This document shows positions 1 to 26,264 of a stretch of 37,021 nt of DNA, piece after piece. Numbering within the stretch: position 1 is the stretch's first letter; each line of letters opens with the position of its first letter. The notes below the pieces were generated by a model that was given only the letters and a program-made list of their open reading frames with translations, ran no database searches and had not been told where the DNA came from. This DNA comes from Clostridia bacterium (GTDB lineage Bacteria; Bacillota; Clostridia; RGIG6154): contig JAGARF010000220.1 of the NCBI GenBank assembly GCA_017622395.1, positions 1 through 37,021 on the forward strand, given 5' to 3'. Position numbers and translations under genes: made by a program.

Positions 1-3000
1 AATCTTATTTTTATTTGAGCTTGAAACCGCTCCGCCGTCGTATTGCACACCATCTACCGTAAGTATTATGTCGTAACCCGGGTTGTTGTAATAGGTTGTG
101 TAATACTGACAAAGCTCCACTAAACCTGTCTGATGGCTTGAGTCGGTATAATACACTTCTATTTCATAGTCTGTAACAGCTACCGCTGCAGACATAGCAA
201 ATCTTATATAGTCATAATTACTCTTTTCGGTTTCTTTTAATGTGTATGTATAGTTGGTATTACCTGCCTGCTTTTCTGCAGAACTGCAATTATCCTTGTA
301 GGTTTTTGTACTTATGGCATTTAAAGAGTTTGTATCATATCCAACCTGTGGGAATTTATAAACAGTATCACCGAATTTATAATATCCGTCTGCAGGTACA
401 AGTCTTTTTAGGTTTGTAAGATTATACATACCAAGAGTGTTGTTCGTTCCGCCAAGAAGGTTTTTGTCGTTATGTGTTTCACCCTCATTGTTAAATACAT
501 CAACATTAAAATCCCCTTCAATATCAAACTGAACAGATGCAGGCATTTCAACAAGTGCAAGGTCATATGTGTGGAACACATTGACTCCGTCGCTGTTTTG
601 CCACTTACTTCCGTCTCTTGCGATATTTCTTGCAGTTACTCTCCAATAGAAGGTATCAAACTCTTCAGGAAGGGAGGTTACGGTTTCAAAGTTAAAGTAA
701 GAATTTTCATTTTTGTATACAATATTGTTCATCTGAGGGTCTGTTGCAATCTCCAATGTGAAATAATCGGAGGATACAGGTCTTTCCCACATAAATGTAA
801 CATTTTTCTTATCAGCAACTCTGCCGTTGTTTTCAGGATATGTTAAGTTAAACTCCTTATACTCAGCAGGAAGGTTTTTGGCATTTTTAAGTGCAACCTG
901 ATTAAGCTCAAAGCCTAAATCATAAGAAGTCTTCCCGTTTTCCAAAAGTCCGATTGTGTTTAAATCAAAGCTTTCGTCAAGTGCTCCGCCACCTGTTTCG
1001 CCTTTTATTCTGAAATCTCTTTCTTCGTAGTTAACAAAGGTATCCTTGCTTGCGTCTTCTATGTTATCCTCAAACACACTTCCGAATTCTCTGTAAACAT
1101 CGTAAACATTACCATCTACATCCTTGTTTTCAGGTGCTCTCCACGGTCTGTTTGCAATATTTCCTATATATTCGTTTCCGATAGTTGATTTTAATGATAA
1201 AAGTCTGTATTTTGTTAAATCAGCTCCGTTGTCAATATCTGTCTGTATCTGCGGATTTACCCTTGTAACGATAGGATATTTTTTAGCAAACTGAGGTACG
1301 GTTTCATTTGGATTTAAAAGTGTTTCGATTGAGTCGTTCATTTCAGGGTATCTTTCAAAGAAGAACTCATTTCTCTCAATCAAATCATAAGTTTTAGGTT
1401 TTCCGTCATCAAGGACAATATCTATTTTCGTGCCTTTTTCACCAACTCCTGAAATCTTTATTATTTCATCAAAAGCTGTGCAATCTGCGTGATTTCTGTA
1501 ATCCTCAACAAATCTGTTTGCACGGGTCATAGTTTCGTCTGCATCAACAATTGTGTTGTAGTTTATTTTGTTATGATGTCCTCCGCCGTTTTGTATGCCG
1601 TTTGCATCTTCACCGACACCATTTGAGAAAATAATGTTATGGTGAATACTTATTCCGCTTAATCTGTCGTCAAGATATACACCTACACAATTATCCTTTG
1701 TTCTTTCATCAAGCTGCTTGTAGTCGTGGATATAGTTGTATGCAATTTCTGTGCCTCTTGTTGCAAGCTGTCTGCCGTTGTAGATAACACCGCAGTCGCC
1801 TGTATCTCTGAGCATATTGTAAAGCTCGTTGTAGGCAATAACATTTTCATTACCTGAATGGTTGATTGCGTGGAAGGTACCCATATGTACCTCATTATTC
1901 AACGCATAGTTTAAAACACCGTTTACCTGTATGTTAGGGGTACATCTTTGCTTGTTTGAAGCATTGTAAATATAGTTGTTTGCAATAACATTGTTTCCTC
2001 TTGAAAGTGTTTCTCTTTCTCCGCCTGCGAAACTTATTGCAGATGCTCCTATATTTATAAATCTGTTATTTCTTACTTCACAATTTTCAGCCGCATCGTA
2101 ATAGTTTGCAGTTCCCCACAGCTTACTGCTGTAAACATTTACACCATTATATTGTACTGCTCTGTTTGAAATGTTTTTGAACTCACAGTTATAAAGATTA
2201 AGCTCTTCAACACTTAATCCTGCAGTAAAAGCATTTCCTCTTATTTTGTCGAACTTAAGTCCGTCAAAATTTATATAGTCTGTATTAATCACATTGACTG
2301 TATCAAGCTTTCTTGCCGCAAACTGAATTTCTGCATTTTCATCAAAATCTTCGGTGGGGTAGTAGTAGAAAATATTTGTATCTCTGTCTAAATACCATTC
2401 ACCCGGCACATCAAGCTCAGAAAGTGCGTGCTTTATTTTATATCTTCTGCTGTGTTTTTCGTCTGCATCAAATCTTGCAGGATTTTTGAATTTAATCAAA
2501 TCTCCGTCAATGGTTAAATTATTTCTTTCGTTTGAATAGTCAACAGAAGGGTAGCCCTCAAAATATGCATACTTTTCACCCTGCCAATTCTTTGAACGCA
2601 AAGCATCCGCCTTTATTGTGACAGAATTTATATTAGTGTCTGCAACAGATACCCATGTATCATAGTTACTTTCGCCGTTTGGATACTGTGCAACCATCTG
2701 CTCCTTGTCATTTACAAAGAATGAGATATCCTCAAAGCTGTCTCCAAGAATATTTGTACTTGAATAAACAGGCATAGCTCCTGCATCTATTCCGAGTAAA
2801 TCAAGGTCAGCCTTATAAATTTTTCCTATCAGGTCTGACGGAATTCTGCTGTCCTCACCCTCTTTTACAAGTTTGAAATCCTTAAAATCAACGGTGTCAG
2901 CAGTTGTGAAAACCGCATCGCCGTCAGCCCTGTAGGTTACAGGAAATCCCTCTTTGCCCGAATCGTTTATATCGAAAACAACTGTTTTATCTAAATGATA

Positions 3001-4668
3001 TACTCCTTCGTGGATAATAACATTTACAGGTCTGTCCTTTTTAAGATTTTTTACAAAAACTCTTGCTCCGTCAAGAGTTTTAAGAGGGTCCTTTTCACTT
3101 CCGCTCCCATTGTCATTGCCATTTGGTGCAATATGAACCTCATATTTTCCGTCTGCACCTACATTATATTCTGTAAGGGCGGTCAGCTTTTCCATCAGGG
3201 CTTTGTCAAAGTCACCCTTTGATATACCCTGATTTAAAAGAAAATCAATACGCCTTTTAATTCTGTTTAATTCTTCATATATGCTTGCATCAAAATTTTC
3301 GGGCAGGTCTTTTATTTCATTTTCAAGCTTTGCAATATCATCATTATAAGAGGTTGCCTCTGTTTTGCTTGCGGTTACTGCGTGAAGATAAACAGGATAG
3401 TTTACATTATGAATTACACCTATGTAATAATCTCTTTCTTCCTCATAGCCTGCAACATTTTCAAGCTGTTTGCTGTTTATTGGTATAAAGTAGCTGTCTG
3501 AGCAGGATCTTTCCTGCGGCGTTGTTTCTCTTGATGTATATTTGCTGTAAGCTATACCGCCAAGTGCCTTAATTTCGTCAACAGTTGCATAAGACACCTT
3601 AACTCTGTCTATAGCCTTGTCCTCTGTATCAACAGTAACTGCCGTTGCATTGCCTGAATTGGTCTCTTTCCCTATCGTTTTGACAGAGGTGCCATCTTCC
3701 TGGCTTACATAGTAGACCTTTATGCCGTCACCAATTTTAAAATATCTGTCAATATTCGCCTCGTCGGGAGACCAGAGAGTATCAAGACTTTTGGCAAGGG
3801 TATCTTTACCTAAATATTCACTATATATTACCTCTTTGTCCTCAAGAGTTGAATAAAGGGACATTCTGTAACCGTAACAGTAAGGACCTATAATATGGAG
3901 CTGTTCTTTTGAGGTTCCGTCTGCGAAATATATTGTTGTCTTTGCCATTTGAACCTGTCTTGCATACTCTCCTGCAAGGTAGTTAATACCTGACATAAGA
4001 AAGCTTACCTGATTGTATTTTGTGCTTCCGTCAAATCTTATCTCATAAGAATTTGATGAGGATACAATACCTGCATTATAGGTGTTTTCTCCTGTTTTTT
4101 CAGAAATTCCGCTGTATACATACTGAAAATTATTATCTGCAGTGATATAATATTCACCAAATTTATCCGGGAAAGTTTTGGGGTATTTTGCTTTTACGGT
4201 GTCAGTATTATAAAAACCTATAAAAGAGCCGTATGGAACTGTTGCAGGAAAATGTTTATCATTGGTTGGTTGCATAACAATGCCCTTCTTGTATGCAATC
4301 TCATCAACACTTTGAACTGCATCATATTCAAACATATCAACACAGGCAAGAGAATCTTTCTCCTGCCAATTTATTTTTATTCTGTCCTGATAAACAGTGC
4401 TTTTGAGCCAGGTGTTGTGGGGATTTTTATGTTTTGTGAAATATTTTCTATATTTTTCTTTGCCTATATCATTCTCCATAAAACCGTTGGTTTCTATAAG
4501 TGCGTCAATTTCTGCAATTATATCCCCGTTTCCCACCTGATAGCTTTCAGGCAAAGCATTAATAAGAGAAATAACTCTGTCAAGGTCTGTCTGCTCAGCA
4601 GATGCAGGCAGACAAACCATATTTAATACTAATAATAACGCTCCGATTATAGCTACTGTCTTTTTCAT
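1..4668 (-). CDS. Giant secreted right-handed beta-helix (pectin-lyase-fold) protein, 3'-truncated by the window edge; paralog of residues ~820-2496 of the adjacent 2496-aa protein
   Basis: Absent from the ORF track because no stop codon lies in the window. Hand translation of the minus strand from ATG at 4668 (SD aagggag 5 nt upstream, only 11 nt after the stop of the upstream gene) gives MKKTVAIIGALLLVLNMVCLPASA/EQTDLDRVISLINALPESY... The frame (codon first bases = 0 mod 3) stays colinear with the paralog at three checkpoints (positions 1872, 1215, 513) and is still open at base 1 (...ILTVDGVQYDGGAVSSSNKNKI). It contains the same beta-helix motifs as the paralog: EWYLDRDTNIFYYYP, NRFINIG, DTGDCGVIYNGRQ, VYLDDRLSG. 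Confidence 0.85.
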   Translation of the reverse strand, partial: MKKTVAIIGALLLVLNMVCLPASAEQTDLDRVISLINALPESYQVGNGDIIAEIDALIETNGFMENDIGKEKYRKYFTKHKNPHNTWLKSTVYQDRIKINWQEKDSLACVDMFEYDAVQSVDEIAYKKGIVMQPTNDKHFPATVPYGSFIGFYNTDTVKAKYPKTFPDKFGEYYITADNNFQYVYSGISEKTGENTYNAGIVSSSNSYEIRFDGSTKYNQVSFLMSGINYLAGEYARQVQMAKTTIYFADGTSKEQLHIIGPYCYGYRMSLYSTLEDKEVIYSEYLGKDTLAKSLDTLWSPDEANIDRYFKIGDGIKVYYVSQEDGTSVKTIGKETNSGNATAVTVDTEDKAIDRVKVSYATVDEIKALGGIAYSKYTSRETTPQERSCSDSYFIPINSKQLENVAGYEEERDYYIGVIHNVNYPVYLHAVTASKTEATSYNDDIAKLENEIKDLPENFDASIYEELNRIKRRIDFLLNQGISKGDFDKALMEKLTALTEYNVGADGKYEVHIAPNGNDNGSGSEKDPLKTLDGARVFVKNLKKDRPVNVIIHEGVYHLDKTVVFDINDSGKEGFPVTYRADGDAVFTTADTVDFKDFKLVKEGEDSRIPSDLIGKIYKADLDLLGIDAGAMPVYSSTNILGDSFEDISFFVNDKEQMVAQYPNGESNYDTWVSVADTNINSVTIKADALRSKNWQGEKYAYFEGYPSVDYSNERNNLTIDGDLIKFKNPARFDADEKHSRRYKIKHALSELDVPGEWYLDRDTNIFYYYPTEDFDENAEIQFAARKLDTVNVINTDYINFDGLKFDKIRGNAFTAGLSVEELNLYNCEFKNISNRAVQYNGVNVYSSKLWGTANYYDAAENCEVRNNRFINIGASAISFAGGERETLSRGNNVIANNYIYNASNKQRCTPNIQVNGVLNYALNNEVHMGTFHAINHSGNENVIAYNELYNMLRDTGDCGVIYNGRQLATRGTEIAYNYIHDYKQLDERTKDNCVGVYLDDRLSGISIHHNIIFSNGVGEDANGIQNGGGHHNKINYNTIVDADETMTRANRFVEDYRNHADCTAFDEIIKISGVGEKGTKIDIVLDDGKPKTYDLIERNEFFFERYPEMNDSIETLLNPNETVPQFAKKYPIVTRVNPQIQTDIDNGADLTKYRLLSLKSTIGNEYIGNIANRPWRAPENKDVDGNVYDVYREFGSVFEDNIEDASKDTFVNYEERDFRIKGETGGGALDESFDLNTIGLLENGKTSYDLGFELNQVALKNAKNLPAEYKEFNLTYPENNGRVADKKNVTFMWERPVSSDYFTLEIATDPQMNNIVYKNENSYFNFETVTSLPEEFDTFYWRVTARNIARDGSKWQNSDGVNVFHTYDLALVEMPASVQFDIEGDFNVDVFNNEGETHNDKNLLGGTNNTLGMYNLTNLKRLVPADGYYKFGDTVYKFPQVGYDTNSLNAISTKTYKDNCSSAEKQAGNTNYTYTLKETEKSNYDYIRFAMSAAVAVTDYEIEVYYTDSSHQTGLVELCQYYTTYYNNPGYDIILTVDGVQYDGGAVSSSNKNKI

Positions 4669-4679
4669 AATTTCTCCCT

Positions 4680-7600
4680 TTATTTTATAGGTAATTTAGT
4701 TGTATATGGCTTCATTGTGTTAGGGTCTCTTTCCCATAAAAACATAGCTCTGCTTGTCATTCTCTCTGCCTTTTCAGGAATTTCTATGTTAAGTACTCCT
4801 GCATATTTATTGTTTCTTATTGTTGCAGTAACCATAATAACCGTATATTCCCCGTCTATATAGCCTGTTATTATAACATTTGCATTTTTCTCTGCTCCTG
4901 AGTAGTTTTTCATAGAAATTGCCTGCACCTTATTTCCGTTTGCAAGAATTCTTTCGGACTGAACACCTGTTATGGCGAAGATATATTCGTCATTAGTACC
5001 TCCATTGTATACAGTTCCGCTTGTTCTTACAAATTCAATGCTTTTAAGGACTTTAGTATTATCTGTGTCAATAACAGCCTCATATATTTTATTCATAGTA
5101 TACGGAGTTACAGATGATACTTTCTGTCCCTGATAGTTTACGCCGTCAACAGTAAGAATAATATTTGCTGTTTCGTAGCTGTGTGCAGTTGAGTAATACT
5201 GATGAAGTGCAACCGTAAGGGTTTCTGATGAATTATCAGTATAATGAGCAATTATCTGATAATCCTTTGCAGCCAATTTAGAACTCATTGCAAGTTTAAC
5301 CTTATCATAATAGCCCTGTTCTTCGGTTTTAAGTGTGTATGTATAATTACCTTTTTTGCCCAAAAGCTTATCCCAGGAACTAAGGTTATCATAACAAACC
5401 TGTGTACTTACAGCATTATTCTTGCTTGTGTCATAACCAACCTGAGGGAAGCAGAAAGCCGCTCCTCCATATTCATAATATCCGTTCGCAGGAACTATTT
5501 TCTTTAAATTTGTAAGGTTATACATACCAAGAGTACCGCCTGAACTTATACCTCCAAGGAGATTTTTGTCACTGTGAGTTTCTCCTTCATTATTGAATAC
5601 ATCAACATTAAAGTCTGCAGAAATATCAAAAGGTACCGCCGCATCTTCATAAATATCAATACTTACTGAATATAGAGTTTTGATTTTTCTTACTCCGTCA
5701 GAATTTGTCCAGCTGTTTCCATTTCTGCCGATATTTCTTGCAGTAACTCTGAAATAGAATTCATTCTGGCTGTAATCGCTTAAGTCAACATTAAGTCTTG
5801 AGAAGTACGCATTTTCGTTTCTGTAGATAATGTTGCTCATATTTTCATCTGTTGCGATTTCAACTGTGTAATAGTCAGCAGGAGCAACTCTTTCCCATTC
5901 AAGATAAACATTTGATTTATCAGAGCCGTCAACGCAGATTATTTCAAAGCTTCTGTCAAGTCCTGCTTTTGGATTAACTGTATTAATTCTGTTAAGCTCA
6001 AAGTCAAGGTCGTATGAAACAGAGCCATCTGCCTGAATACCGATTTTGTTTAAATCAAAGCTTTCATCAAGTGCTCCGCCATTAGTTTCGCCTTTAATTC
6101 TGAAATCTCTGCCTGCGTAGTTAACAAAGGTATCTGTTGTTGCATTATCAACATTGTCTGTATTTGTGCTTCCGAATTTTTCGTAAACATCATAAATATT
6201 ACCATCTATGTCCTTGCTTTCAGATGCTCTCCAAGGTCTGTTTGCGATATTTCCGATATATTCGTTTCCGATAGTTGATTTTAATGATAAAAGTCTGTAT
6301 TTTGTAAGGTCATTGCCATTTGCAATATCCTGTGAAAGATTTCCGTATCTTCCGCCCTCTGAAAATTCAGGAAGTGTTAAAATAAACGGATATTTATTAA
6401 CAAACTGCGGTACAGTTTCATTTGGATTTATGAGAGTTTCAATTGAGTCATACATTTCTGGATATCTTTCGAAATAGAACTCGTTTTTTGCAAGCATTTT
6501 GTATTTCTTGGTATTTCCGAGGTCAAGAAGCAGTAACACTTCTTCTCCTTCTGAAGCCATACCTGAAATTCTTATAAGCTCGTCAAATGCTGTGCAGTCT
6601 GCATTATTTAAATAATCAGCAATCAATCTGTTTGTTCTTGTCATTGTTTCGTCAGCATCAACAATTGTGTTGTAGTTTATTTTATTGTGCTGACCGCCGC
6701 CGTTCTGGATACCGTTTGCATCATCACCCACACCGTTACTAAAAATTATGTTGTGGTGAATATTTATTCCGCTTAATCTGTCATCAAGATAAACAGCAAC
6801 ACCGTTATCCTTTGTTCTTTCGTCTAAATGCTTATAGTCGTGGATATAGTTGTATGCAATCTCTGTACCTCTTGTTGCAAGCTGTCTGCCGTTGTAGATA
6901 ACACCGCAGTCGCCTGTATCTCTGAGCATATTGTAAAGCTCGTTGTAGGCAATAACATTTTCATTACCTGAATGGTTGATTGCGTGAAAAGTACCCATAT
7001 GTATTTCGTTATTTAATACATAGTTTTTAGCACCTGTAACCTCTATGTCAGGATTACATTTTTGCTTATCACTTGCATTGTATATATAGTTATTTGCAAT
7101 TACATTGTTGCCCTCTGATAATGTTGAACGGTTACCGCCAATAAATTTAATTGCATTGCTACCGATATTTATAAATCTGTTGTTTCTTATTTCGCAGTTT
7201 TTAGCCGCATCTGTGTAGTTTGCAATATTTGCAAGAGTTGATGAACTTGTTTTAGCTGTATATCTTACTGCTATATTTGAAATATTTGTAAACTGACAGT
7301 TGTATATATTAACATTATCCTGAGAAGCTCCTGCGACAAATGCATTTCCTCTTATTTTATCAAACTTAACACCGTCAAGATAGAAATTAGATAAACCTGT
7401 TGTGGTTGTAATTGCATCTAACTTTCTTGTTGCAATCTGAATTTTTGAGCCTTCGTTAAAGTCAGCTGTTGGGTAGTAGTAGAGAATGTTTGTATCTCTG
7501 TCTATATACCATTCGCCCGGGGAGTCAAGCTCATAGAGCATATGCTTAACCTTGTATCTTCTTGAGTGGTTTTCATCAAGCTCAAATCTTGCCTTATTTT

Positions 7601-10600
7601 TAAAGCAGATTAAATCTCCCTCAATTGTTATGTTGTTTCTTTCGTTTGAATAGTCGGGAGAAGGATAGCCTTCAAAGTATGCAAACTTTTCGTTTTGCCA
7701 TTTTTTCGCACGATTTGCATTAACCTTTATTTTTCCTGAATTAATTGAAGTATCTGCAAGGTCAACCCAGGTTTCATAGTTACTTTCGCCGTTTGGATAC
7801 TGTGCAACGCTTTGCTCCTTATCATTTACAAAGAAGGTAACATCCTCGAAGCCGTCACCGCCTATTGCAGTTGAGTAAAACATCGGCATATCGCCTGCAT
7901 AAATTCCGTGGTCTGAAAGGTTAACCTTTAACACCTTTCCTATAACCTTTGGCTGAAGTCTTTCTCCTGCTTCTTTTTCGGTAACCTTTTCAAAGTCGTA
8001 GTAGCTTAAAGTATCTGCAGTTGTAATAACACCGCCCATACCTTTGATTGTAACAGGGTTTTCCTTTGTTCCTGAATCAAAGGCAGTAAGCTCAAGGGTT
8101 TTTGACAGGTTGTGTTCACCTTCAAGAAGAATTATATCTACAGGTCTTGCATTTTTATATGTTCTTGCAATTGCCTTTGCTCTTTCCAAAGTCTTAACAG
8201 GAGAGCCATAGTATCCGTATCCGCTGTCGTCTCCGTCTGGGGAAACATAAATTTCATAATGTCCGCTTTCAGCAACATTGCTTTCAAGGAGATTTTCAAG
8301 CTTTTCAAGTAAAGCACTGTCAAAGCTTGCTTTAGATACACCCTGATTTTCAAGGAAAGCTATTCTGCTTTCAGCATCTTTCATAGCCTTAACTTCATTA
8401 ATATCAAATTCCTCTGAAAGGCCCTTGATTATGTTTTCTATTTCGGCAATATCCTCTGCATATGAACTGCTTTCTGTTCTAACGCCCGTTACGCCGTGAA
8501 GATATACAGGGTATAAAGGATTTATGATAACAGACATATAATAATCTCTGTTTTCTTCATAGCCTGTTATGCCTGCAAGCTGAGATTTGTCTATCGGAAT
8601 ATAATATGTGTTTTTACTTTCTCTCTCAATATCAGTTGTTACGCCGTCGTTAGTTTCCTGTCTGACATATTTATCGTAAGCAACGCCGCCCATTTTCTGA
8701 AGGTCGGAGGCTGTTGCATAAGATACGCTTACTTTTTCAACTGCTTTACCCTCTGCATCAATATTTATAGCTGTTGCTCTGCCAAGTGTTGAGTCTTTTT
8801 TGATTTCCTTTGTAACCTGGTCAACGTTATAATAAAGTCTGATACTGTCAGGTGCAAGCTTGAAATAACTGCTTACATTAGCCTCTTTTGGATACCACAG
8901 TTCATCAAGATTCCTTTTTATTCTTTCGCTTAATAATTCGCTGTATGGCAATGCATCACCATCAAGCATTGAATAAAGTGCCATTCTGTAGCTGTAGGCG
9001 AAATTACCAACAAGAGAAATTTCCTCTTTTGATGTTCCGTCTGCAAAAGAAACCTTTGTTTTTATTGCCTGAAGCTGTCTTGAATACTCACCTGCAAGGA
9101 AGGTAATACCATTTGCAAGAATACTGATTGTGTCATACTTTGTAACTGAGTCAAAGGGGATTTCAAATCCGTATGATGGTGCAATCATACCTGCATTATA
9201 GGTATTTTCGCCAATTGTTTCTGAAATTCCTCTGTAGCCGTATGTAATATTATTGTTTTTGATGTAATATTGGTTATATTTATCAGGGAAGGTGTCAGGG
9301 TTTTTAGTTTTTGCTGAATCTGCAGAATAAAAACCGATAAATTGACCGTGAGGATAGTTACTTGGCAAAACATTGTTTGTAGAGCTCATAACAATACCCT
9401 GCTTGTTTGGAATTTCTTCAAGCTTTGCTGTGCTGAATTCAAATATGTCTGCTGCGTGCATATCGTCCTTTGCTGTCCAGTCAATAACCATTCTGTCCTG
9501 ACTGTTTTTAACATTAAGCCATTCATTATAAACAGCAAGATGGCTTTCATATCTTTCATAATAAGGTGATAAAGATTTAATATACGCCTCTGCTACACCG
9601 TCTTTTATAAGACCTTCTATAAGTCTTTTTGCTTCAGCAGCAGTTTTACCTGTTTCATTTGAATATTTTTCAGGCATATTGTTTAAAATCGTAACAAGCT
9701 CTTTTATAGACTCGCCGTAAGAATCCATAAGCTCTTTTTGTTCATAAAGATATTCAATTTTTTCATAAAGCTTTTCATCAAAGTCTTCTTCGGTAACTAC
9801 ACCGCCTGCTATGATTTCTTTGATTTCTTCTCTTATTGCAAGGATTTCCTCTGCATCTTTTTCAAGATACGCTTCAGGAAGCTTTTCAATTCTTGCTTCA
9901 ATAGCATTGATTTTGTCTGATAAAGAAAAACTTGAAACTGACATACCAAAAAGATCTGTCCTTCCCTGACATGTTCTGCCGAAGTCTATGAATAAATCAT
10001 AGTTGCCGTTATAGCCGTCAAGAGTAACCTTGTGATATGTATTCTGTGTCTGTGATCCAAGTCTTTGATCATGCGGAGCTATTACCTTATCTGAGTCGCC
10101 GGTTCCCATCCAGCTAGAAATTGAAATCTTTTTAATAATTCTTGTGCTATCTATTGGTATTGATGCATCTTCAACATAATAAGTTGCTGTATAGCCATTT
10201 TGAGTAGGTCTATAGACTCTTGTTGTTCCAAGGTTGAATTTTTTAGTGTATATCAGTTTTACACCACTTGCAAGACCTGTAAATACAAAGTCTTCTATTT
10301 TTGCATCTGCTTTTACACCAACTGTGCTCATACCTGCTGTATCAAGAGATACATAGTTTGTTTTTGCATCAACCAACTCCTGCTGAGTATATTCGCTGCC
10401 GTCTGCCTTTTTAGGGAAAGCTCTTACAATTTTTGTACGATCTTCTTCCTTGAGTTTCTCTTCTGTTGTTATTATATAAACAGTTTCAGGGTCACCTGTT
10501 GTATACTCTATTGTTACAGGAATAAGAGTCATATCTCCTTCCTTCTCATATGTACGCATTAAGATATTGAGATAGTCGCCCGAAATATTTATATTGTCGA

Positions 10601-12251: not shown

Positions 12252-12280
12252 ATTATATCATACATTACTGCAATAATCAA
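12252..12280 (-). promoter_or_regulatory. Sigma-A type promoter for the 2496-aa gene
   Basis: The minus strand reads TTGATT, a 17-nt spacer, then TATAAT with an extended -10 (TGATATAAT). The -35 is at 12275-12280 and the -10 at 12252-12257. It lies just downstream of the terminator of the preceding operon and about 80 nt upstream of the ATG at 12170. Confidence 0.6.
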
Positions 12281-12352: not shown

Positions 12353-12364
12353 TTTTATGTTTAT

Positions 12365-16189: not shown

Positions 16190-16206
16190 AATTTATTACT
16201 CCTTTC

Positions 16207-18015: not shown

Positions 18016-18036
18016 AATTCTCCGATTCTCCTTTCT

Positions 18037-21000
18037 TTAGCGGTCAACATTAATAACAACAAGCTTGTAAATTGTACCTTGATAATCATGTATAAACAAT
18101 CTTGAACAGCTTGCGCCATAATCTTCATAGGTTTTTATGTCGGTAGTGGAGCCTTCTCTTGCAGATGCCTTTTCTCCCTTAATGTCCACAACGGTAATAA
18201 TTGTTGGAAGCACCCATGTGTTAGTTACCTGATTTTCGTCTGTTTCTTTATAAACCTTTGAACTGTCTGACAAGTCCATATTTGTAACTGTTATAAGTCC
18301 CTCATTAATTCTTACAGGGAAGCAGTCAAACATTCTTACACTACCACTCGTAACTTTTGAAGGAGTGCCTTCTCCCGGTGCGTTAACAACAGCACCTGTT
18401 TCAGGGTCTTTAACCTGTGTTCCGCCGCTTTCATTAACAATATATGGGTTACCGCCCTTAATTTCATCAAATAAGCCGCTTACCTGACCTGCAAGCGCAC
18501 CGCCCATTTTTCTTGGGTTATTTGTATAGTTAAGGCTCTGTCTGTATACAAGTGATGCATATATAACATTTCCGTTCACCTGATGGAGATTGATTATGTC
18601 ACCTTCTTTTACACTATATGAAGGGGTGTTATTTCCATTGTTAACAAATGCTTTCATATTGTTGAATGCACCTGTTGAGCTTTCATATACAGCATTGACC
18701 TGTTTTCCTGTGCTTGTTGCAGAGAGCTCAAGTCCTTGAATTCTCACGATAGGTTCACCATCAATATTAAGTGCATGCTTTACAGACTCAACTATAACAA
18801 ATGGCATTGTTCTTATGCTTGGTTTGTAATTTGTAAGCTTATCATTTTTCATAACAATATATTTTGCATTATATGATTTAGGGTCTGTATTATAAGCTGT
18901 AACATTTCCATATTTCATATCATTCAAAAGTACAGAAGTTGTCTTTATCTGGTACTTTGAATATTCGTCTGTTATGTCACCTGTTGAAACAAAGAATATC
19001 TTCGGTGAATTTCTTGTAAATGCTTTTCCGCCAAAGCCCTGCTGTAAATACTGTTCATCGTCTGCAGAATAGAATACTGAAAGTCTGCCGTTTGCTCTTG
19101 TGTCCTGATTTGAAATTGCAAGAGGAATTGAAACCTCTGAAATAAGACCTTCTTCTGTAGTTGTAAAGGTAATAAGAGTATCCTTGTAATTTTGAAGAAT
19201 TGCAATCATATCTAATGCTTCTTCTTTTGAATATGCATCGTTTTCGTTTGTAAATGCAACCTTTTCAGCAAGGATATAGTCAGCAAAAGCACCTGTTTCA
19301 AGGAAAATTCTAACCTTGCAGTCCTTCTTTAATCCTCTGCCGTCTTCAAAGCCGTTGATTAAAATACCAAGACCTTCAAGTGTTGTTGAAGAAGAATCAA
19401 AGTATACAATTTCACCGAAGGTATTGAAGTATGCAGTAGTTTCTGTACCTATGTCAGGAATCTTCACTGTCTCTGAGGTTACAAGTTTCTTTGCAAGTAA
19501 ATATTCTTCACCATCTGAAGAATATATGTATGATTCGCTTTCCTTGTCAATAGATGTACCGCCAACAGTCATAGTTTCTTTCTTGTCGGAAATAAGAATC
19601 TTGATTGCATTTTTGCTCTTTGCAACATCAATAACCATACCTGATTTGATATCTCCGAAAGTTGCGTTTGCTCCGTTTTTGATAATTGTAATTTCTGTGT
19701 TTTTGTTGTTCTTTTCGCTTAAATCAAGATTTGCGTATTCGTCTTTTACCGGCTCAACAAGTCCGTTTGAAATAATCTTTTCGCTTGCGATTACAGACTT
19801 AGTATACATTGAAACAAAGCCTTCAATAACGATTGTGTCATAAATATCGCTTGAGCCTGATTTGAGTGCTGTTACAGTACCATTTGAAAATTCCTTGATT
19901 TCTTCTTTTGTAACACCCTCAACCTTACTGCCGTTGAAAATTATAGTAGGAACACTTGCAATATCAAGATAATCCTCCTCTTCGTTCTCATCAATGTATT
20001 CAAGTTTTCCGTATGTAAGGTTTTCAAATTTATCTATTTCTATTACGAACTCTTCGCCGTCTTCTGCAAGAGCCGCATAGATAACCATCATTTTGTCTGT
20101 TTCTTCATCTTCAACAACATAAAATTCAACAACTCTGCCGATGAAGCCCTTAACATAATTTGCTGTGTCAGCAAGCTCAAATACAACATTTCCGATTTTG
20201 ATTTCATCATCATCAATTTCTGACTGACCTAAAAGGGCAGTTGTTCCGTTGTCTGTAACCTTACCTTCATACTTGTAAACACCTAAAACATCATATAAGA
20301 ATGTCTTATCAGATGTTGTATATGTAGCAACACCTGTATCTGTAACAGAAACAGCAGCAATCATATTAACATCAAACATATTGTAGAGCATTTTAGCAAG
20401 CTCACCGCGTGTTATTGGGTTTTCGCCAAAGTTGTTAACACCCTTTAACACCTTTAATGTGCTTGCAAGATAGTTAAAGCCTGCAGGATATCCGCCGTTT
20501 ATATTTGCAAACTGCTCATAGCCTAAGATTTTAACCAAAACCTTGTTAACCTGATTAACAGTAACAGGGTCTTCAGGTGAAAATTCTGTTTCAGATGTAC
20601 CAATCATATAGCCGATATCAGTAATCTGTGAAATTACACCAAATGCCCAATGAGTTGTAGGAACATCAGCAAATTTCTGAACCTTTTCAGCAGTATCAGG
20701 AGCAGAAGAAGCTGTTTCTTCTCCTGTTACAAGTCCTGTAGAAGGAGTTAAGAGGACATTGTCTAAATCCTCAGGAATTTCAAATTTATAGTACCATGCG
20801 TTTTCCTTTGCAACATCACCATGGTTGATTTTAAGCAAAACGGTAAGCACCTGAGCAAATTCTGCTCTTGTAAGATTTGCGTCAGCATTAAAAGCGCCTG
20901 TTTCGTCGCCGTTAATGATGCCCATTGCTTTGATTACTCCGATTTCCTCTGCATACTTTACAGCCTGAGTGGTTGCACCTGTGTCTTCAGCATAAACCAT

Positions 21001-21069
21001 AACGAACATACTGAGTACCATAGCACACGCAAGGATAACCGAGATAATTTTCTTCATTGAATTCATCAT
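18037..21069 (-). CDS. SLH-domain surface (S-layer-like) protein (1010 aa) with three N-terminal SLH repeats and a long beta-rich C-terminal region
   Basis: Signal peptide MMNSMKKIISVILACAMVLSMFVMVYA/EDT. SD aaggagag 5 nt upstream of the first ATG. SLH-type repeats span residues ~36-235 (nt ~20365-20964): YAEEIGVIKAMGIINGDETGAFNADANLTRAEFAQVL, FADVPTTHWAFGVISQITDIGYMIG...VNQVNKVLVKILG, YLASTLKVLKGV...ITRGELAKMLYNM. Confidence 0.9.
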   Translation of the reverse strand: MMNSMKKIISVILACAMVLSMFVMVYAEDTGATTQAVKYAEEIGVIKAMGIINGDETGAFNADANLTRAEFAQVLTVLLKINHGDVAKENAWYYKFEIPEDLDNVLLTPSTGLVTGEETASSAPDTAEKVQKFADVPTTHWAFGVISQITDIGYMIGTSETEFSPEDPVTVNQVNKVLVKILGYEQFANINGGYPAGFNYLASTLKVLKGVNNFGENPITRGELAKMLYNMFDVNMIAAVSVTDTGVATYTTSDKTFLYDVLGVYKYEGKVTDNGTTALLGQSEIDDDEIKIGNVVFELADTANYVKGFIGRVVEFYVVEDEETDKMMVIYAALAEDGEEFVIEIDKFENLTYGKLEYIDENEEEDYLDIASVPTIIFNGSKVEGVTKEEIKEFSNGTVTALKSGSSDIYDTIVIEGFVSMYTKSVIASEKIISNGLVEPVKDEYANLDLSEKNNKNTEITIIKNGANATFGDIKSGMVIDVAKSKNAIKILISDKKETMTVGGTSIDKESESYIYSSDGEEYLLAKKLVTSETVKIPDIGTETTAYFNTFGEIVYFDSSSTTLEGLGILINGFEDGRGLKKDCKVRIFLETGAFADYILAEKVAFTNENDAYSKEEALDMIAILQNYKDTLITFTTTEEGLISEVSIPLAISNQDTRANGRLSVFYSADDEQYLQQGFGGKAFTRNSPKIFFVSTGDITDEYSKYQIKTTSVLLNDMKYGNVTAYNTDPKSYNAKYIVMKNDKLTNYKPSIRTMPFVIVESVKHALNIDGEPIVRIQGLELSATSTGKQVNAVYESSTGAFNNMKAFVNNGNNTPSYSVKEGDIINLHQVNGNVIYASLVYRQSLNYTNNPRKMGGALAGQVSGLFDEIKGGNPYIVNESGGTQVKDPETGAVVNAPGEGTPSKVTSGSVRMFDCFPVRINEGLITVTNMDLSDSSKVYKETDENQVTNTWVLPTIITVVDIKGEKASAREGSTTDIKTYEDYGASCSRLFIHDYQGTIYKLVVINVDR

Positions 21070-21117
21070 TTTATCTCTCCTTAAGATAGTTTAGTCGATT
21101 ATTTAGAATTTTCCTTT

Positions 21118-21155
21118 CTGTGTAGGGGCGACCCTGTGTGGTCGCCCGTTCACAG
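21118..21155 (-). terminator. GC-rich hairpin without U-tract between the 1634-aa gene and the SLH operon; possible weak terminator, RNA processing or stability element
   Basis: Stem gggcgacc (21126-21133) pairs with ggtcgccc (21140-21147) around loop ctgtgt. An outer stem ctgtg (21118-21122) pairs with cacag (21151-21155) across a 3-nt internal mismatch. Neither strand has a T-run after it. Confidence 0.35.
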
Positions 21156-21168
21156 TGTAGGCAATTTA

Positions 21169-24100
21169 TCATTTAACATTTGAGTAATAAGTCATCATTG
21201 CCTCAAGTCCGCCAAAGATTAAATCCTTATTAAATGCGGTGTTTGTAATGGCAATAAGACCGCTGCCTGACTCTTCCCAGAATACCTGTTTTCCAAGGTC
21301 CTCAGAAATAACTCTGATTGGGAGCATCATTCTGTTATTAACTATGGTTGCAGGCTGGTCAAGTGTTCTTGCAGCACCGTCATAGTAATAGGTTGTCTGA
21401 TTTTCGGTAAACTTCAGTGTATGTCCGTCTGCAACAACTGTAGCAGTTGCTGTTGCACCGTCCCATGTTACTTTAGCTCCGAATGCTTCGGAAATAAATC
21501 TTATAGGAACAAGTGTTCTTCCGTTAACAACTGCAGGAGCTGCCTGAAGGTAACTGTGCTGACCGTTAATCATAGCAGTCTGTTTTCCTACATTAAGAAT
21601 AATACTGTCGCCGTTTACCTTAATAAGCTGAGTTAAGAGCTTGTCATTCTTTGTTGCCTCAACCATCTTAAATCCGCCGATAAGCATTACGCCGTTTCCT
21701 GAGCCTTCAAGTTCAACATCAAGGTCTGAGTTTGTATCCTGAAGTGCACCGAGATAAATCCAGCCTGCCTCGCCGTTTCTGTTGTCGATATTAAATATTC
21801 TGTCCTCACCGTCATAGGTTGACTTTGTTTTTAACCTAATATTTGTATCGCCGTTTTCAGCTTTACCTACCCAATAATAAACATGCTGATATTCATAAGG
21901 AGCTTCAAAGCTGATTGTTATTCTTTCTCTGTTTCCTTCCTGGTCTTTTGAAAGGAGACGAACACCGTCTACACCGATTTGTGTTTCCTTCCAGGTCTTC
22001 TTATCTGCAAAGCTGTATACACTTGCCATATTATGATTAAATACTTTACCCTTTGTTAAGTAGTAGTCTGTATAAAGCTCATCAAGAACAAGTGCACCTG
22101 ATGATGCAGGCCATATTTCCAAAGGCTGATTTGCATAATCATAGAATACGAGTTCGCCATCGTCTACAAGACCGTTCGGGTCTAACACATCGCAAAGTAC
22201 AACATCGTTTACATAAAGAACAACTCTTGTTCCGCCCTTAACATTAGGTGCACCGAATTTGATGTTACATCTTTCGCCCGGTGTGTAATATCCGTTGTTA
22301 GGAATAATCGCAATAAACTGCTGAATTCCGCCGCTGAATCTCTGTACCTCAATCTTGTCTTTCTTAAATACTGCAGCATATGAGTTTACATTATAGAAGT
22401 TCTTTGTTTTGTCTGAGTTCTTGACTGTAACCGCCTGATATCCGTCTGCAGGGTTAAGTACCATATCAAAGTTATAAATATCAGTCTTTCCGCTTGAACC
22501 GAATTCCCATTGAGCATATCTAACCTGAATATCTTCTCTTGGAGTAAACGGTGCGTGGTCAACAGGAGTTCTTAATCCCATAAGTCCGTTTGCATTCCAG
22601 CCGCTTGCATTGGTAACATGCTTAGTCGCTGCTGTCTGCCACTTGGTTTCAAATACTTCTTCAACTTCCGTATCTTCCTTAGGTGTTGAATTTGTAAGCT
22701 TCATTTCCTTATATTCTTCATTGTCCTGAAGTTCGATTGTAACTCCGCCTGTTGATGTATAGAATGAAAGATAACCAGGTTTTGTTACAGGGAGAACTGT
22801 GTCTACTGTATCATAAATTACAGTTCCGTTTAATTCAAAGTAGTATCTTACACCTGCGATGGTGTTAACAATACCAAAGGCAACATCTGCCCATTCACCG
22901 TTCTTTAAGTATGCGTTGTTAACAGTTGAAAGGATACCTGACTGTGAGCCTCTTCGCTGAACTTCAACCTGTTCCTGCTTGATAACAACCATATAACCGT
23001 CGCCTGCATAGTTGTGCTGAGAAACCGCCTGTTCTCTGTGCTTAACAGCAACATAAGCTGAGCTTCCTTCAGGCCATGTAATTCTCATCTTAAAGCGGTT
23101 GATTTCACCGATGCCCGGCATATCAGGAGCTGCAACTGTTGCTGCACCGTCAAAGAGCATCTTTATAGTCTTTGTTCCCTCGTCATAAGAAAGGGCATTT
23201 GACATATCTGTGTTTCCGCCGTTCTTTATCCAGCTGTCTGTATTAACACCGTCTTCCTTAAATATGAAGTGAAGGTTTCTTTCTTCTGAGTAAACGCTGA
23301 GTGATACTTCCTCATAAACCTTTATAAGCTCTGCGGAGGCTGCGTCAACCTCAGCCTGTGTAGCCTGACCGTCTGCCATAGATGCATAAAGTCTTGCCTT
23401 TGCAAGTGCGTCCTCAAGCTTTTTCTTTGAGCCTGCAGGATATCCGCCGCCCACTTCTCCTTCAACAAGGTTTGCAAGCTTTTCACTTATCTGTTCAATA
23501 TTGTAATTGATTGTATCAAATTTAAGCTGTTCGTATTTAGATGTTGTAAAGAGGTGAGGAACACCTGTGCTCATCCAGCTTGAAGGATAGTTAGCTGAAT
23601 AGTTCTGTGCCTCAACTGTCCAATAATATGGAGCATTGCCAACCTGAAGGTCGTCAAAGGTTGCATATGCGTTATGGCAAATCTGCTCTTTAACAATATT
23701 CTTCATTTCAGGGTCTGTGGCAATTCTTATAATATATTGGTCAGCACCCTTTGCATTTTCCCAAACGAATTCTGCCTGCTGTGCATCAATTCCTGTTGCA
23801 CCGTTTGCAGGATATAATTTTCTGAAAGGTGAAGATTCTTCATTAAATAATGGAAGGTGGTCTCTTGTTTCTGAGATATACACACCTGTATCTTTATAAT
23901 CAAAGTTTAACTCTGTAAGAGCATTTGGTCTTGATTTTGCAAGCTCTGAATCTGACTTTAATCTGTAGTCATTATTTTTATAATCAACAAATTGGTCTTC
24001 CATATCACTTGTAATAAGTGTATTGTTTTCAGCAACAAGTGTTGGCTCGTCGAAAATTCTTTCACTCCATGACCATGGAAGGTTTGCTATATTATGTGAA

Positions 24101-26073
24101 ATAGTTGATTTATAAGGAAGCCAGCCGACGCTTCCGTTTGCTTTAGCCTTCTGAGCATATTCAAGCTCCTCGTAAAGCTCAGGCCATTCCTCGTAAAATC
24201 TTGTTTCATTATCACGGACATCTTCCATAAATGAAACCCAGTCCTGACCGCCTGATAAAAGGAGAAGCATAGTTCCGTTAAAGGTTTCACCTGAATGTGA
24301 GTATGTAAGCGAGCCTCTTGCGCAGTCAATCATTGTGTTGTCAAGAACTGTGCAGAAATTAGCACCGTTAATATGAACACCTGCACCTGTATCCCACATA
24401 ATGTTGTTGTAAATATGAGTATCTGACAGCATATCGTCAGCATAAATAGCATTTGTACCGTTAGAAGATGTGCCGCCCTTTGAGTTTGTGTTGTGAATTA
24501 AGTTGTGGTGGATTATATTATCTCTCATAATAAAGTCGCGGCCTTGATAAATAGCACCTGCATCGTATGGCTCTCTTGTTACATTCCATACGTGGTTGTA
24601 TGATGTGTCTGAACGGATATAACCGTAGTTATATGCGTGGAACATCATATTATGCATAGAGTTGTTTGTAACCTCAAGACCCATAGAGTTGTTTGCATAA
24701 ATACCTGCCTGAGATGTTATAAGAGAAGCTCTTTCTAAAAAGTTGTTATGAATTCTTGAATGACCGTCTTCAAGATTATAAGGGCTTCCTGTGGCAACCG
24801 ATATGTGTGAGAAGCCTGCATCATAGAAATCATTTGACTCTATATTAATATAAGTAGAATCGTTATGCTGAGTTGTAGATTTCCAGCCGATAGACGTTCT
24901 GTTTCTTCCGTTAATAATTCTGTTCTTCCAGTTTTCACCCTGTGTCATCTGGATTGAACGCTTCTGCATACCAAAGAACTCATTTCCTACTATATTAATA
25001 TGGTGATTGTCTCTGCCCATATAAATACCTGTTTCAGCACCGAAGAATTTCAGGCCCTCAAAGTTAACATAGTTTAAAAGCTCAAAGTTGATTAAAGGAA
25101 ATGTCTGGTATGAAACATACATTTCGTGGCCCTTAAGGTCGTATGGTGGGTAATAATAAAGAGTGTTGTCGTTTCTGTCTAAATACCATTCTGTAGGACA
25201 ATCCATTTCTTCTAAAAGGTTTTTAACCTTCCATCTCTTTGTTTTATTACACACAACACCGAAGTCTGTACCGTATCTTAAGGTAATTTCAAGAGTTTCC
25301 TCGTCGATTTTGGCAATTTTATTGATTTCGTGTCTGTAGTCTTCGCCCCAGTATCCAACAATAAGCATCTGCTCTTTATCTGCAGTCTGCCAGTTGCCTA
25401 TTCTTGAGGTTTCAGCCTGAAATACACCGCCGCCGTTTGTAACTGCTCTGCCTGTTTTACCGCCAATAACGGTTTTAACATACTTTCCATAGTGCATTTC
25501 GCCGTTTGGCCACTGAGAAAGCATCTGTGTTTTACCGTCAAGATAAACATCAACCCAATTAAGAGGACAAGTGCTTTCACTTTCAGCCCAGCCGATAACA
25601 CCAAGCTTTCCAATGTTATAGTCGTCTAAATCAAGCTTCATAACCTTGCCTCTTCCTTCTTCAGGAATTCTTGCAAGTGTTTCGGCATCTGTTACGAACT
25701 GAAACTTGCTTGTATCAAGCTTTAAAGCTGATGTAAATACAGGAGTTTCTCCTTCATATGCCTTATAGGTTATGGGAGCATGCTTTGTTCCCGAATCCCT
25801 TGCATCCATAAATACTGTGTTGTCAAAATTGTAAGTACCTTCACGAAAAATAACCGTAACAGGCTTGGTTTTGTCAATCTGTCTTACTTTTTTAACAGCA
25901 CCCTCAAAGGTTGCAATAGGGTCATCAATGCTTCCGCTTGCAGAATCTGAACCCTTAGGGCTTACATAGATAAATATTTCGCCCTTATCTGTTGCAGGGG
26001 TTGCCGCAAGAGAGGTCATTGTTGGCATTATCAATGTTATAACTAACAATACCGATAGTAATACCTTTTTCAT
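21169..26073 (-). CDS. Secreted 1634-aa right-handed beta-helix protein with an FN3-like module, two tandem ConA/LamG-like jelly-roll modules, a CBM-like module and a C-terminal copper-amine-oxidase-N-terminal-like domain
   Basis: The track ORF starts at 26112 (MDRHIKIYRKVKK...). The internal ATG at 26073 has SD aggtga 5 nt upstream and begins a canonical signal peptide MKKVLLSVLLVITLIMPTMTSLA/ATPA. Beta-helix motifs are IFIYVSPKGSDSASGSIDDPIATFEGAV, TEWYLDRNDNTLYYYP, YDAGAIYQGRD, NAIYADDMLSD. The FN3-like motif is FVWENAKGADQYIIRIATDPEMKNIV. The duplicated segment is VVIKQEQVEVQRRGSQSG / AVFKKDKIEVQRFSGGIQ. The C-terminal part VNGRTLVPIRFISEAFGAKVTWD...NNRMMLPIRVISEDLG (nt ~21238-21630) is typical of the Cu_amine_oxidN1-type domain. 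Confidence 0.88.
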   Translation of the reverse strand: MKKVLLSVLLVITLIMPTMTSLAATPATDKGEIFIYVSPKGSDSASGSIDDPIATFEGAVKKVRQIDKTKPVTVIFREGTYNFDNTVFMDARDSGTKHAPITYKAYEGETPVFTSALKLDTSKFQFVTDAETLARIPEEGRGKVMKLDLDDYNIGKLGVIGWAESESTCPLNWVDVYLDGKTQMLSQWPNGEMHYGKYVKTVIGGKTGRAVTNGGGVFQAETSRIGNWQTADKEQMLIVGYWGEDYRHEINKIAKIDEETLEITLRYGTDFGVVCNKTKRWKVKNLLEEMDCPTEWYLDRNDNTLYYYPPYDLKGHEMYVSYQTFPLINFELLNYVNFEGLKFFGAETGIYMGRDNHHINIVGNEFFGMQKRSIQMTQGENWKNRIINGRNRTSIGWKSTTQHNDSTYINIESNDFYDAGFSHISVATGSPYNLEDGHSRIHNNFLERASLITSQAGIYANNSMGLEVTNNSMHNMMFHAYNYGYIRSDTSYNHVWNVTREPYDAGAIYQGRDFIMRDNIIHHNLIHNTNSKGGTSSNGTNAIYADDMLSDTHIYNNIMWDTGAGVHINGANFCTVLDNTMIDCARGSLTYSHSGETFNGTMLLLLSGGQDWVSFMEDVRDNETRFYEEWPELYEELEYAQKAKANGSVGWLPYKSTISHNIANLPWSWSERIFDEPTLVAENNTLITSDMEDQFVDYKNNDYRLKSDSELAKSRPNALTELNFDYKDTGVYISETRDHLPLFNEESSPFRKLYPANGATGIDAQQAEFVWENAKGADQYIIRIATDPEMKNIVKEQICHNAYATFDDLQVGNAPYYWTVEAQNYSANYPSSWMSTGVPHLFTTSKYEQLKFDTINYNIEQISEKLANLVEGEVGGGYPAGSKKKLEDALAKARLYASMADGQATQAEVDAASAELIKVYEEVSLSVYSEERNLHFIFKEDGVNTDSWIKNGGNTDMSNALSYDEGTKTIKMLFDGAATVAAPDMPGIGEINRFKMRITWPEGSSAYVAVKHREQAVSQHNYAGDGYMVVIKQEQVEVQRRGSQSGILSTVNNAYLKNGEWADVAFGIVNTIAGVRYYFELNGTVIYDTVDTVLPVTKPGYLSFYTSTGGVTIELQDNEEYKEMKLTNSTPKEDTEVEEVFETKWQTAATKHVTNASGWNANGLMGLRTPVDHAPFTPREDIQVRYAQWEFGSSGKTDIYNFDMVLNPADGYQAVTVKNSDKTKNFYNVNSYAAVFKKDKIEVQRFSGGIQQFIAIIPNNGYYTPGERCNIKFGAPNVKGGTRVVLYVNDVVLCDVLDPNGLVDDGELVFYDYANQPLEIWPASSGALVLDELYTDYYLTKGKVFNHNMASVYSFADKKTWKETQIGVDGVRLLSKDQEGNRERITISFEAPYEYQHVYYWVGKAENGDTNIRLKTKSTYDGEDRIFNIDNRNGEAGWIYLGALQDTNSDLDVELEGSGNGVMLIGGFKMVEATKNDKLLTQLIKVNGDSIILNVGKQTAMINGQHSYLQAAPAVVNGRTLVPIRFISEAFGAKVTWDGATATATVVADGHTLKFTENQTTYYYDGAARTLDQPATIVNNRMMLPIRVISEDLGKQVFWEESGSGLIAITNTAFNKDLIFGGLEAMMTYYSNVK

Positions 26074-26235
26074 TTTCTTCACCTTTCTGTAAATTTTAAT
26101 GTGTCTGTCCATAATTTCATATTACAAAAAATAAAAATTATTTACTTTTTTAAAATTGCAGAAAATCCCTTAAACCCCTGTAATTACTTGATTTTTCGGG
26201 AATCCTCTGCATAATATTCCATTATGGTTTTATAC

Positions 26236-26264
26236 ATTATAATATAAATTTTGCAGAATTGCAA
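26236..26264 (-). promoter_or_regulatory. Consensus sigma-A promoter for the 1634-aa beta-helix gene
   Basis: The minus strand reads TTGCAA (26259-26264), a 17-nt spacer, then TATAAT (26236-26241). An A/T-rich UP-like tract lies upstream. It implies a leader of about 155 nt before the ATG at 26073. Confidence 0.6.

Follow-up and report, generated by a model that had tools for sequence, protein, structure and literature searches.

A lineage-specific cluster of divergent GH141-like proteins and separate SLH proteins, a candidate surface polysaccharide-degrading locus of an uncultured Clostridia bacterium

We analyzed a 37,021-nucleotide stretch of DNA from an uncultured Clostridia bacterium, probably of the ruminant gut (assembly GCA_017622395.1, contig JAGARF010000220.1, positions 1 to 37,021; below, the window), and we report on the six minus-strand genes, A to F, that fill positions 1 to 26112 of it. 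Our leading interpretation, to which we give a probability of about 0.55, is that these genes form a lineage-specific locus for the degradation of polysaccharide at the cell surface, composed of divergent GH141-like enzymes (A, B, and F), a two-protein unit with S-layer homology (SLH) domains (D and E), and dark modules. Gut and rumen Clostridia are major fiber degraders, and their display of enzymes is known mostly from cellulosomes and from enzymes equipped with an SLH or sortase anchor of their own. Gene A is cut by the window edge, and we took its full length of 1689 amino acids (aa) from a 44.8-kb metagenome scaffold of the same DNA (ERZ28654132, XIEF21-1_SAMN15830103; locus L004). The six are genuine genes, with full-length homologues at 36 to 95% identity in other assemblies. 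The coordinates of all features are collected in Table 1.

A, B, and F have a common core of ~880 aa. A and B are paralogues that are 55 to 56% identical (56% over 1550 aa), and their cores are 27 to 28% identical to residues 28 to 857 of F. A preliminary description of this DNA, made by eye, had pointed to three enzyme-like giants with one beta-helix core, and both the kinship and the enzyme-like character were borne out. Searches with the single sequence of F matched PDB 9rx2 (E 9.5e-13) and the GH141 fucosidase BT_1002 (5mqp; E 2.4e-5). A profile built from 17 core sequences (A, B, and F plus 14 further family members, 20 to 49% identical) matched 9rx2 at 3.4e-87 and BT_1002 at 5.2e-48 over profile positions 25 to 527. 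BT1002 is an alpha-L-fucosidase of B. thetaiotaomicron that cannot do without Asp523 and Asp564 for its activity (PMC12786026, PMC5593877). These two residues align to the aspartates in the motifs D-[AC]-G-x-I-Y and Y-x-D-D of the cores, and both are invariant in 17/17 sequences. Because of the profile matches and the invariant aspartate pair, we read A, B, and F as putative glycoside hydrolases of a divergent GH141-like clade.

The cores share with characterized GH141 enzymes (BT1002, Xyn141E of C. thermocellum, and the Wf141 endo-fucanases) a right-handed beta-helix with an N-terminal G-x-D-x-x-x-G-T cap, the insertion-domain motif LLEELDxPGEWYxD, and both catalytic aspartates (PMC12786026; PMC5593877). 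The insertion-domain motif is detectable below the Pfam threshold and is seen in 8/8 F orthologues; the GH141_M model scored 16 to 20 bits against a gathering score of 27 and matched only over its last ~35 positions. Unlike these enzymes, A, B, and F are 2 to 4 times larger and carry unknown accessory modules, and their kinship to the family is remote. The closest solved relative is 9rx2, a 717-aa "Parallel beta-helix repeat protein" to which nearly the whole catalytic module aligns and whose N terminus, as read from the alignment, resembles the lipoprotein signal of a Gram-negative organism. Of the 17 sequences, 14 have an FN3-like domain after the core, among them all of those from clusters with D- or E-like SLH neighbors, whereas 9rx2 lacks both this domain and all the flanking modules, and BT1002 also has no FN3-like domain. 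Alternatively, the A, B, and F cores and 9rx2 may form a sister family. We set aside a polysaccharide lyase identity, as the Pel9A-like and weak PL6 profile matches were far weaker than those to GH141 and 9rx2.

Much of each giant protein lies outside the core. The cores of A and B are flanked by a ~470-aa N-terminal module and a ~320-aa C-terminal region, neither of which has PDB sequence or profile relatives or Pfam relatives (Pfam E≤5), and the middle of F gave no informative PDB match except a weak FIVAR hit. Protein C had no Pfam, NCBIfam, or PDB match and no recognizable catalytic module. Its AlphaFold2 (AF2) model, with a mean predicted local distance difference test (pLDDT) score of 62.6, gave tandem Ig/FN3 matches in Foldseek that were dominated by the C-terminal Ig pair, and among its best fold matches are the biofilm scaffold RbmA and Ig domains of the macroglobulin type. 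With the N-domain of C (CN) as query, an exhaustive HMMER search found 17 relatives among 1.84 billion cluster representatives. Hidden Markov models (HMMs) of C segments run against the other five proteins showed that a helical module is common to A, B, and C; the same models found nothing in common with F, D, or E and no general docking module. CN recurs as a weak copy in B and as strong copies in giants ending in a GDSL/SGNH esterase, and the N-terminal AN module of A and B is also found in such giants. Because AN and CN are paired interchangeably with two unrelated catalytic domains, we consider them accessory modules that, most simply, would bind or space the substrate. The esterase giants L007:5014-9645, P0041, P0043, P0044, and P0137 are 1500 to 2100 aa long, with A/B/C-type N-terminal modules, and one GDSL/SGNH esterase giant is the immediate upstream neighbor of an F orthologue.

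Like the S-layer proteins Sap of B. anthracis and SpaA of P. alvei, D and E have SLH triads, with motifs of the TRAE type. The D profile matched Sap SLH at 4e-16. The AF2 model of E (pLDDT 80) matched the SLH trimers of SpaA and Sap over aa 30 to 228 (E 1e-5, target-normalized template modeling [TM] score 0.63 to 0.79), which were its only significant Foldseek hits; all others were weak and to small beta-barrels. The non-SLH parts of D and E had no informative PDB sequence or profile match. The E family comprises 61 proteins of ~850 to 1050 aa with N-terminal SLH domains. Many described SLH enzymes carry the triad on the enzyme itself; here, the triads sit on separate partner proteins. A CsaB pyruvyl transferase, for a pyruvylated secondary cell-wall polymer, is encoded neither in the window nor on the 44.8-kb scaffold. 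Two details of these proteins stand on their own. The linker of D holds, in a Gly/Ala/Val-rich stretch, a ten-glycine run that is kept in 5/5 aligned orthologues. E has a 44-residue insert (pLDDT <50) between SLH repeats 1 and 2, at aa 80 to 123 of the 1006-aa form (20689-20820); canonical SLH triads such as those of SpaA and Sap are not known to have an insert of this kind.

By a heuristic scan, all six proteins begin with a Sec-type signal peptide, recognized by two basic residues, a hydrophobic stretch, and a cleavage site of the AxA type, and the N termini of B (MRKIIS), C (MKKIIS), D (MKKFIS), and E (MKKIIS) share the motif M-[RK]-K-[IF]-I-S. Pfam and NCBIfam scans of the six proteins, extended to E≤5, found only SLH, Cu_amine_oxidN1, and the weak GH141_M match. 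Dockerin, Cohesin, and Gram_pos_anchor had no Pfam hit at E≤5, a motif scan found no D-x-[ND]-x-[DN]-G dockerin motif, and there was no LPXTG-like motif in the last 80 residues of any of the six (with the full C terminus of A taken from L004). There was also no hydrophobic 19-mer outside the signal peptides of the six, that is, no internal membrane segment, and no cohesin was among the top 50 Foldseek matches listed for each of the E and C models. Dockerin absence is in itself not unusual for Gram-positive surface enzymes. These results agree with the preliminary description, which by eye had seen Sec signal peptides on all six proteins with four alike N termini, SLH domains in D and E, a Cu-amine-oxidase-N-like tail in F (the last two now Pfam hits), and no dockerin, cohesin, or LPXTG signal. 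It had also left unexplained how the giants are retained at the surface. A, B, and C have no recognizable anchor, but F is not anchor-less: its Cu_amine_oxidN1 tail is present in 8/8 orthologues. Two papers take this domain to be the part of wall hydrolases that binds the cell wall (PMC4137172; bioRxiv 10.64898/2026.09.23.753664).

The cellulosome is the obvious system to compare. In C. thermocellum, SLH-bearing anchoring scaffoldins carry cohesins that bind dockerin enzymes (introduction of PMC5593877; established knowledge), and our cluster resembles this arrangement in that noncatalytic SLH proteins are encoded beside secreted polysaccharide-active enzymes in anaerobic Clostridia. It is not a cellulosome, because neither cohesin nor dockerin was found by Pfam, motif scan, or the fold search with E and C. 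Xyn141E is anchored through CBM6 and a type-I dockerin, in contrast to A, B, and F, which have no dockerin. The FIVAR-dockerin/cohesin toxin-glycosidase complexes of C. perfringens (2jnk, 2ozn) are similar in that F has a weak FIVAR-like module after its catalytic region, but the match of F to 2jnk covers only the FIVAR half, and the dockerin half is absent from F. Our literature search on systems that combine SLH with GH141 found nothing relevant.

The cluster is rare and its gene order is conserved. The F family had 29 hits among 5.8 billion proteins, and C had 15. F, E, and D are adjacent in 7/7 related loci where downstream sequence exists, with F orthologues at 36 to 82% identity, and metagenome-assembled genomes (MAGs) of related Clostridia show the order F-E-D-C-(B)-A again. 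JAZROD01 has the full six-gene order (1637, 1012, 601, 1262, 2201, and 1677 aa), and JAZSLZ01 has a five-gene version with a short C. The preliminary description had named co-conservation of the genes in relatives as a check on its proposal, and the recurrence of order and pairing across MAGs answers it. In the MAG CAZMRY01, three F-E-D cassettes lie on three contigs (L011, L012, and L013), and their F proteins are 82%, 38%, and 36% identical to that of the window, which indicates old duplications of the whole F-E-D unit. In distant clusters (L014, L015, and L019), beta-helix enzymes that lack an anchor domain are accompanied by D-like and E-like SLH proteins, and the gene order differs. In one of these (L014:4607-9982, MAG JAZULN01), the D-like and E-like proteins are fused head-to-tail into a single 1791-aa protein made of a D-type N-part, a D-type SLH, an E-type SLH, and an E-type beta string. 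Because of this fusion we take D and E to work as one unit, a Rosetta-stone argument. A read-through artifact was rejected, since the junction has no signal peptide and runs straight into mature E-like sequence. In L014, the next genes of the cluster encode AraC, a GH78 rhamnosidase, DUF6786, an ADP-ribosylglycohydrolase, a beta-lactamase-like protein, and GH28, and in L019 the next genes are two for sugar-binding proteins. Relatives of the enzyme core occur in at least 537 metagenome loci. D- or E-like neighbors were found in only three of the best 80 of them (L035, L036, and L039, at E-value ranks 1, 2, and 5), so the enzyme-SLH pairing characterizes this Clostridia sub-clade.

A possible, although doubtful, extension is that D and E form a wall-attached docking platform that specifically captures the anchor-less giants A and B (and C) through an undescribed recognition pair unrelated to cohesin-dockerin. 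This idea overlaps our model of a degradative locus, as it concerns how the parts hold together and not what the parts do. The anchor-less beta-helix enzymes always stand beside D- or E-like SLH proteins, despite rearrangement and down to 24 to 30% identity; D and E are fused in one lineage; and the FN3-like domain is found in all of the SLH-paired cores and is missing from 9rx2 and BT1002. The helical module that A, B, and C have in common would fit as well. However, this support is purely genomic, and no candidate docking module common to A, B, C, and F was found. The models of E and C show only generic small beta domains, and the co-location could reflect mere coregulation of surface proteins that act separately.

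An unlikely alternative is that the enzymes remodel the cell's own envelope. They would trim its secondary cell-wall polymer, S-layer glycan, or capsule, and D and E would be S-layer-type structural proteins; every F-E-D cassette would then make one alternative unit of the surface layer together with the enzyme that processes it. The architecture of E, in which ~770 aa of beta domains without an enzyme or cohesin fold come after the N-terminal SLH triad, is consistent with this, as are the three divergent F-E-D cassettes in a single MAG, the lack of sugar-uptake genes in the window, and the tail of F, a domain described as typical of cell-wall hydrolases. Distant E homologues (P0067 and P0083) are stand-alone genes amid housekeeping genes. 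S-layer protein genes often stand alone, and S-layer proteins, which assemble themselves into a 2-D lattice, are typically abundant and highly expressed. However, three enzymes of 1634 to 2496 aa with carbohydrate-binding-module-like modules that also occur on SGNH esterases fit an external polymer better, and the distant clusters lie beside GH78, GH28, AraC, and sugar-binding-protein genes. Moreover, all characterized GH141 enzymes act on dietary or algal glycans (BT1002 on rhamnogalacturonan-II, Xyn141E on xylan, and Wf141 on fucoidan). A mainly adhesive or structural role, with the beta-helices as rigid stalks or adhesins, akin to binding proteins of the autotransporter-like or tailspike-like kind, of a surface coat or for fiber attachment rather than degradation, would suit the largely noncatalytic beta-sandwich or helical bulk of A, B, C, D, and E, the RbmA and macroglobulin-type Ig matches of the noncatalytic C, and the frequency of beta-helix folds among adhesins, but it is very unlikely, as the GH141 aspartate pair and motifs, invariant in 17 sequences at 20 to 49% identity, are hard to explain without catalysis and the whole catalytic module aligns to 9rx2 and BT1002.

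Several points weigh against a surface polysaccharide-degrading locus. The kinship to GH141 is remote, with a single-sequence E value of only 2.4e-5 and GH141_M under its cutoff, and the nearest solved protein, 9rx2, has no function on record and is mentioned in no paper found in the literature searched. The signal peptides were called by a heuristic scan and not by SignalP. Cu_amine_oxidN1 is typical of enzymes acting on their own cell wall. Within the window, no sugar transporter, regulator, or further carbohydrate-active enzyme gene adjoins the cluster, and the genes 3' of A on the 44.8-kb scaffold are a sodium/solute symporter of unclear specificity and then an acyl-CoA ligase. The cohesin fold test covered the E and C models, and a cryptic docking module could lie in D, in the A and B flanks, or in C at aa 766 to 1071. 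The substrate guess given below rests on two distant loci, L014 and L019.

If the cluster is a polysaccharide-degrading locus, its six products would leave the cell via Sec and be cleaved by signal peptidase I. F, A, and B would hydrolyze glycan with a divergent GH141-type right-handed beta-helix and its conserved aspartate pair, and the lineage-specific beta-sandwich, helical, FN3/Ig, and FIVAR-like modules would most likely have substrate-binding or spacing roles. D and E would bind the secondary cell-wall polymer via their SLH triads, jointly forming one wall-attached unit, and the Cu_amine_oxidN1 tail would keep F attached to the wall. A, B, and C would be either released or kept near D and E by contacts not yet recognizable in sequence. 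The substrate would be an external complex glycan, and our leading guess is a pectic or rhamnogalacturonan-type plant polymer, with roughly one chance in three for a pectic substrate. Arguments for a nutritional role are that CN and AN occur on SGNH/GDSL esterases, that GH78, GH28, and AraC genes neighbor one distant cluster and sugar-binding-protein genes another, that a mutarotase-like gene lies upstream, and that the known GH141 activities are those of an RG-II fucosidase, a xylanase, and a fucanase; as clues to the substrate, the gene neighbors and these activities are weak. The analysis itself shows the gene structure, the identity of the domains, the conservation of the catalytic residues, the co-conservation of the genes, and the D-E fusion; we infer the hydrolase activity, the wall binding, the physical association, and the substrate. 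The preliminary description had likewise favored a surface glycan-processing apparatus; its enzyme-like cores and SLH partners stood, the latter through co-conservation, whereas F proved to have a probable wall anchor and the origin-proximal position to be particular to this genome.

Table 1. Features of the six-gene cluster and its flank (window positions; aa, residues of the protein)
Feature	Position	Strand	Remarks
Gene A	1-4668	-	cut by window edge; 1556/1689 aa present
A signal peptide	aa 1-24 (4597-4668)		
A AN accessory module + helical module	aa 25-495 (3184-4596)		
A core + FN3-like domain	aa ~486-1375 (544-3213)		candidate catalytic Asp958 (1795-1797), Asp1000 (1669-1671)
A beta-rich C-terminal region	from aa 1369		
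Gene B	4680-12170	-	2496 aa
B N-terminal extension	9720-12170		817 aa; weak copy of C's N-domain + helical module
B AN module	aa 818-1290 (8301-9719)		
B core	aa 1282-2173 (5652-8327)		candidate catalytic Asp1754 (6909-6911), Asp1796 (6783-6785)
Promoter-like site for B-A	12252-12280		
Terminator, likely for C	12325-12354	.	13-bp GC-rich palindromic hairpin, T-run on minus strand
Gene C	12365-16189	-	1274 aa
C signal peptide	aa 1-26		
C beta-rich N-domain (CN)	aa ~27-455 (14825-16111)		moderate model confidence
C helical-bundle array	aa 455-765 (13895-14827)		confidently modeled
C ~300-aa segment	aa 766-1071		no usable model, pLDDT ~30
C two Ig/FN3-like sandwiches	aa 1075-1274 (12368-12967)		
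Gene D	16207-18015	-	602 aa
D signal peptide	aa 1-25		
D Ig-like + helical N-part	aa 25-375		
D poly-Gly linker	aa 376-400 (16816-16890)		
D three SLH repeats	aa ~420-600 (16210-16758)		TREE/TRQD/TRAQ motifs; Pfam SLH E 1e-36, 3 stretches
Gene E	18037-21069	-	1006-1010 aa
E SLH triad	aa 30-228 (20374-20970)		TRAE aa 63-66; Pfam SLH E 1.4e-11, 2 stretches
E string of small all-beta domains	aa 231-1005		~770 aa; AF2 model
F-E RNA hairpin	21113-21161	-	dG -29.7 kcal/mol, z -5.35
Gene F	ORF 21169-26112; from likely start ATG 26073, 21169-26073	-	1647 aa; from likely start, 1634 aa
F core + FN3-like domain	aa 21-865 (23479-26013)		candidate catalytic Asp504 (24562-24564), Asp546 (24436-24438)
F FIVAR-like three-helix bundle	aa ~859-916		weak match to 2jnk chain residues 10-65, E 0.014
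F beta-sandwich region	to aa ~1490		~560 aa, beta-rich
F Cu_amine_oxidN1 tail	aa 1502-1602 (21268-21570)		PF07833 E 6.6e-47, 158 bits, cutoff 24.2
Sigma-70-like promoter of F	26236-26264	-	TTGCAA-17-TATAAT
Mutarotase-like ORF	26445-27440	-	331 aa; NCBIfam "TTE1925 family mutarotase" E 1.7e-91, under curated cutoff
DnaA boxes	30976-31116		five near-consensus 9-mers, ≤1 mismatch, in 198-nt dnaA-dnaN spacer

An open reading frame (ORF) scan gave 98.7% coding sequence for the six-gene region, with gaps of 11 (A-B), 194 (B-C), 17 (C-D), 21 (D-E), and 99 (E-F) nucleotides. The start of F is most likely the ATG at 26073 because a GGTGA ribosome-binding site precedes it. We predict three transcripts, F alone, E-D-C, and B-A. 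The core stem of the F-E hairpin, GGGCGACC/GGUCGCCC at 21126-21147, is followed by no T-tract, and the hairpin is possibly an attenuator or a processing or stability element. The preliminary description was exact in the number, strand, sizes, and gaps of the six ORFs, and the hairpin, strong terminator, and promoters were found where it had placed them. Between the window and the European Nucleotide Archive (ENA) copy of the scaffold, E is 99.8% identical (18037-21069 versus L004:1102-4134), whereas the full-length B, C, and D, like the 333 aa of F that L004 contains, agree at 100%. This difference, confined to E, is a small strain-level or assembly variation.

The cluster lies to the left of phosphofructokinase (PFK), dnaA (29635-30975), dnaN, recF, and gyrB genes. 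The dnaA-dnaN spacer with its DnaA-box cluster is likely oriC. DnaA-type boxes number 16 window-wide, which is not significant (reached in 6/100 shuffles), and their clustering is what stands out. The cumulative GC skew has its minimum at ~26 to 28 kb, and the six genes are therefore co-oriented with a leftward fork. Both the box cluster at ~31 kb and this co-orientation had been noted in the preliminary description, and both were recovered. Its term origin-proximal fits this genome but not the relatives. We rejected origin proximity as a conserved trait, as the right-flank genes of the window are absent from all related loci; in relatives the cluster adjoins a pseudouridine synthase or HU gene. 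The mutarotase-like gene, just upstream of the F promoter, has its own terminator at 26378-26396 and no Pfam match, and it contains a perfect DnaA box, TTATCCACA, at 26969-26977. A 263-aa ORF at 28678-29469 on the plus strand overlaps the end of the PFK gene by 4 nucleotides and has no Pfam or NCBIfam match.

We regard this locus as a well-supported candidate for biochemical follow-up and not as a demonstrated new mechanism. It is an unusual, lineage-restricted form of a familiar surface polysaccharide-degrading system rather than a wholly new machine. Its distinguishing traits are the conserved pairing of divergent GH141-type enzymes with separate SLH partners and several large modules that are nearly free of relatives. 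If the enzymes are active, they would constitute a new sub-clade of GH141 or else a sister family for which 9rx2 is a solved relative. If D and E hold the enzymes, this would be a new principle of surface assembly, and a docking platform, if true, would be a second, independently evolved route to surface multienzyme assembly in Gram-positive anaerobes.

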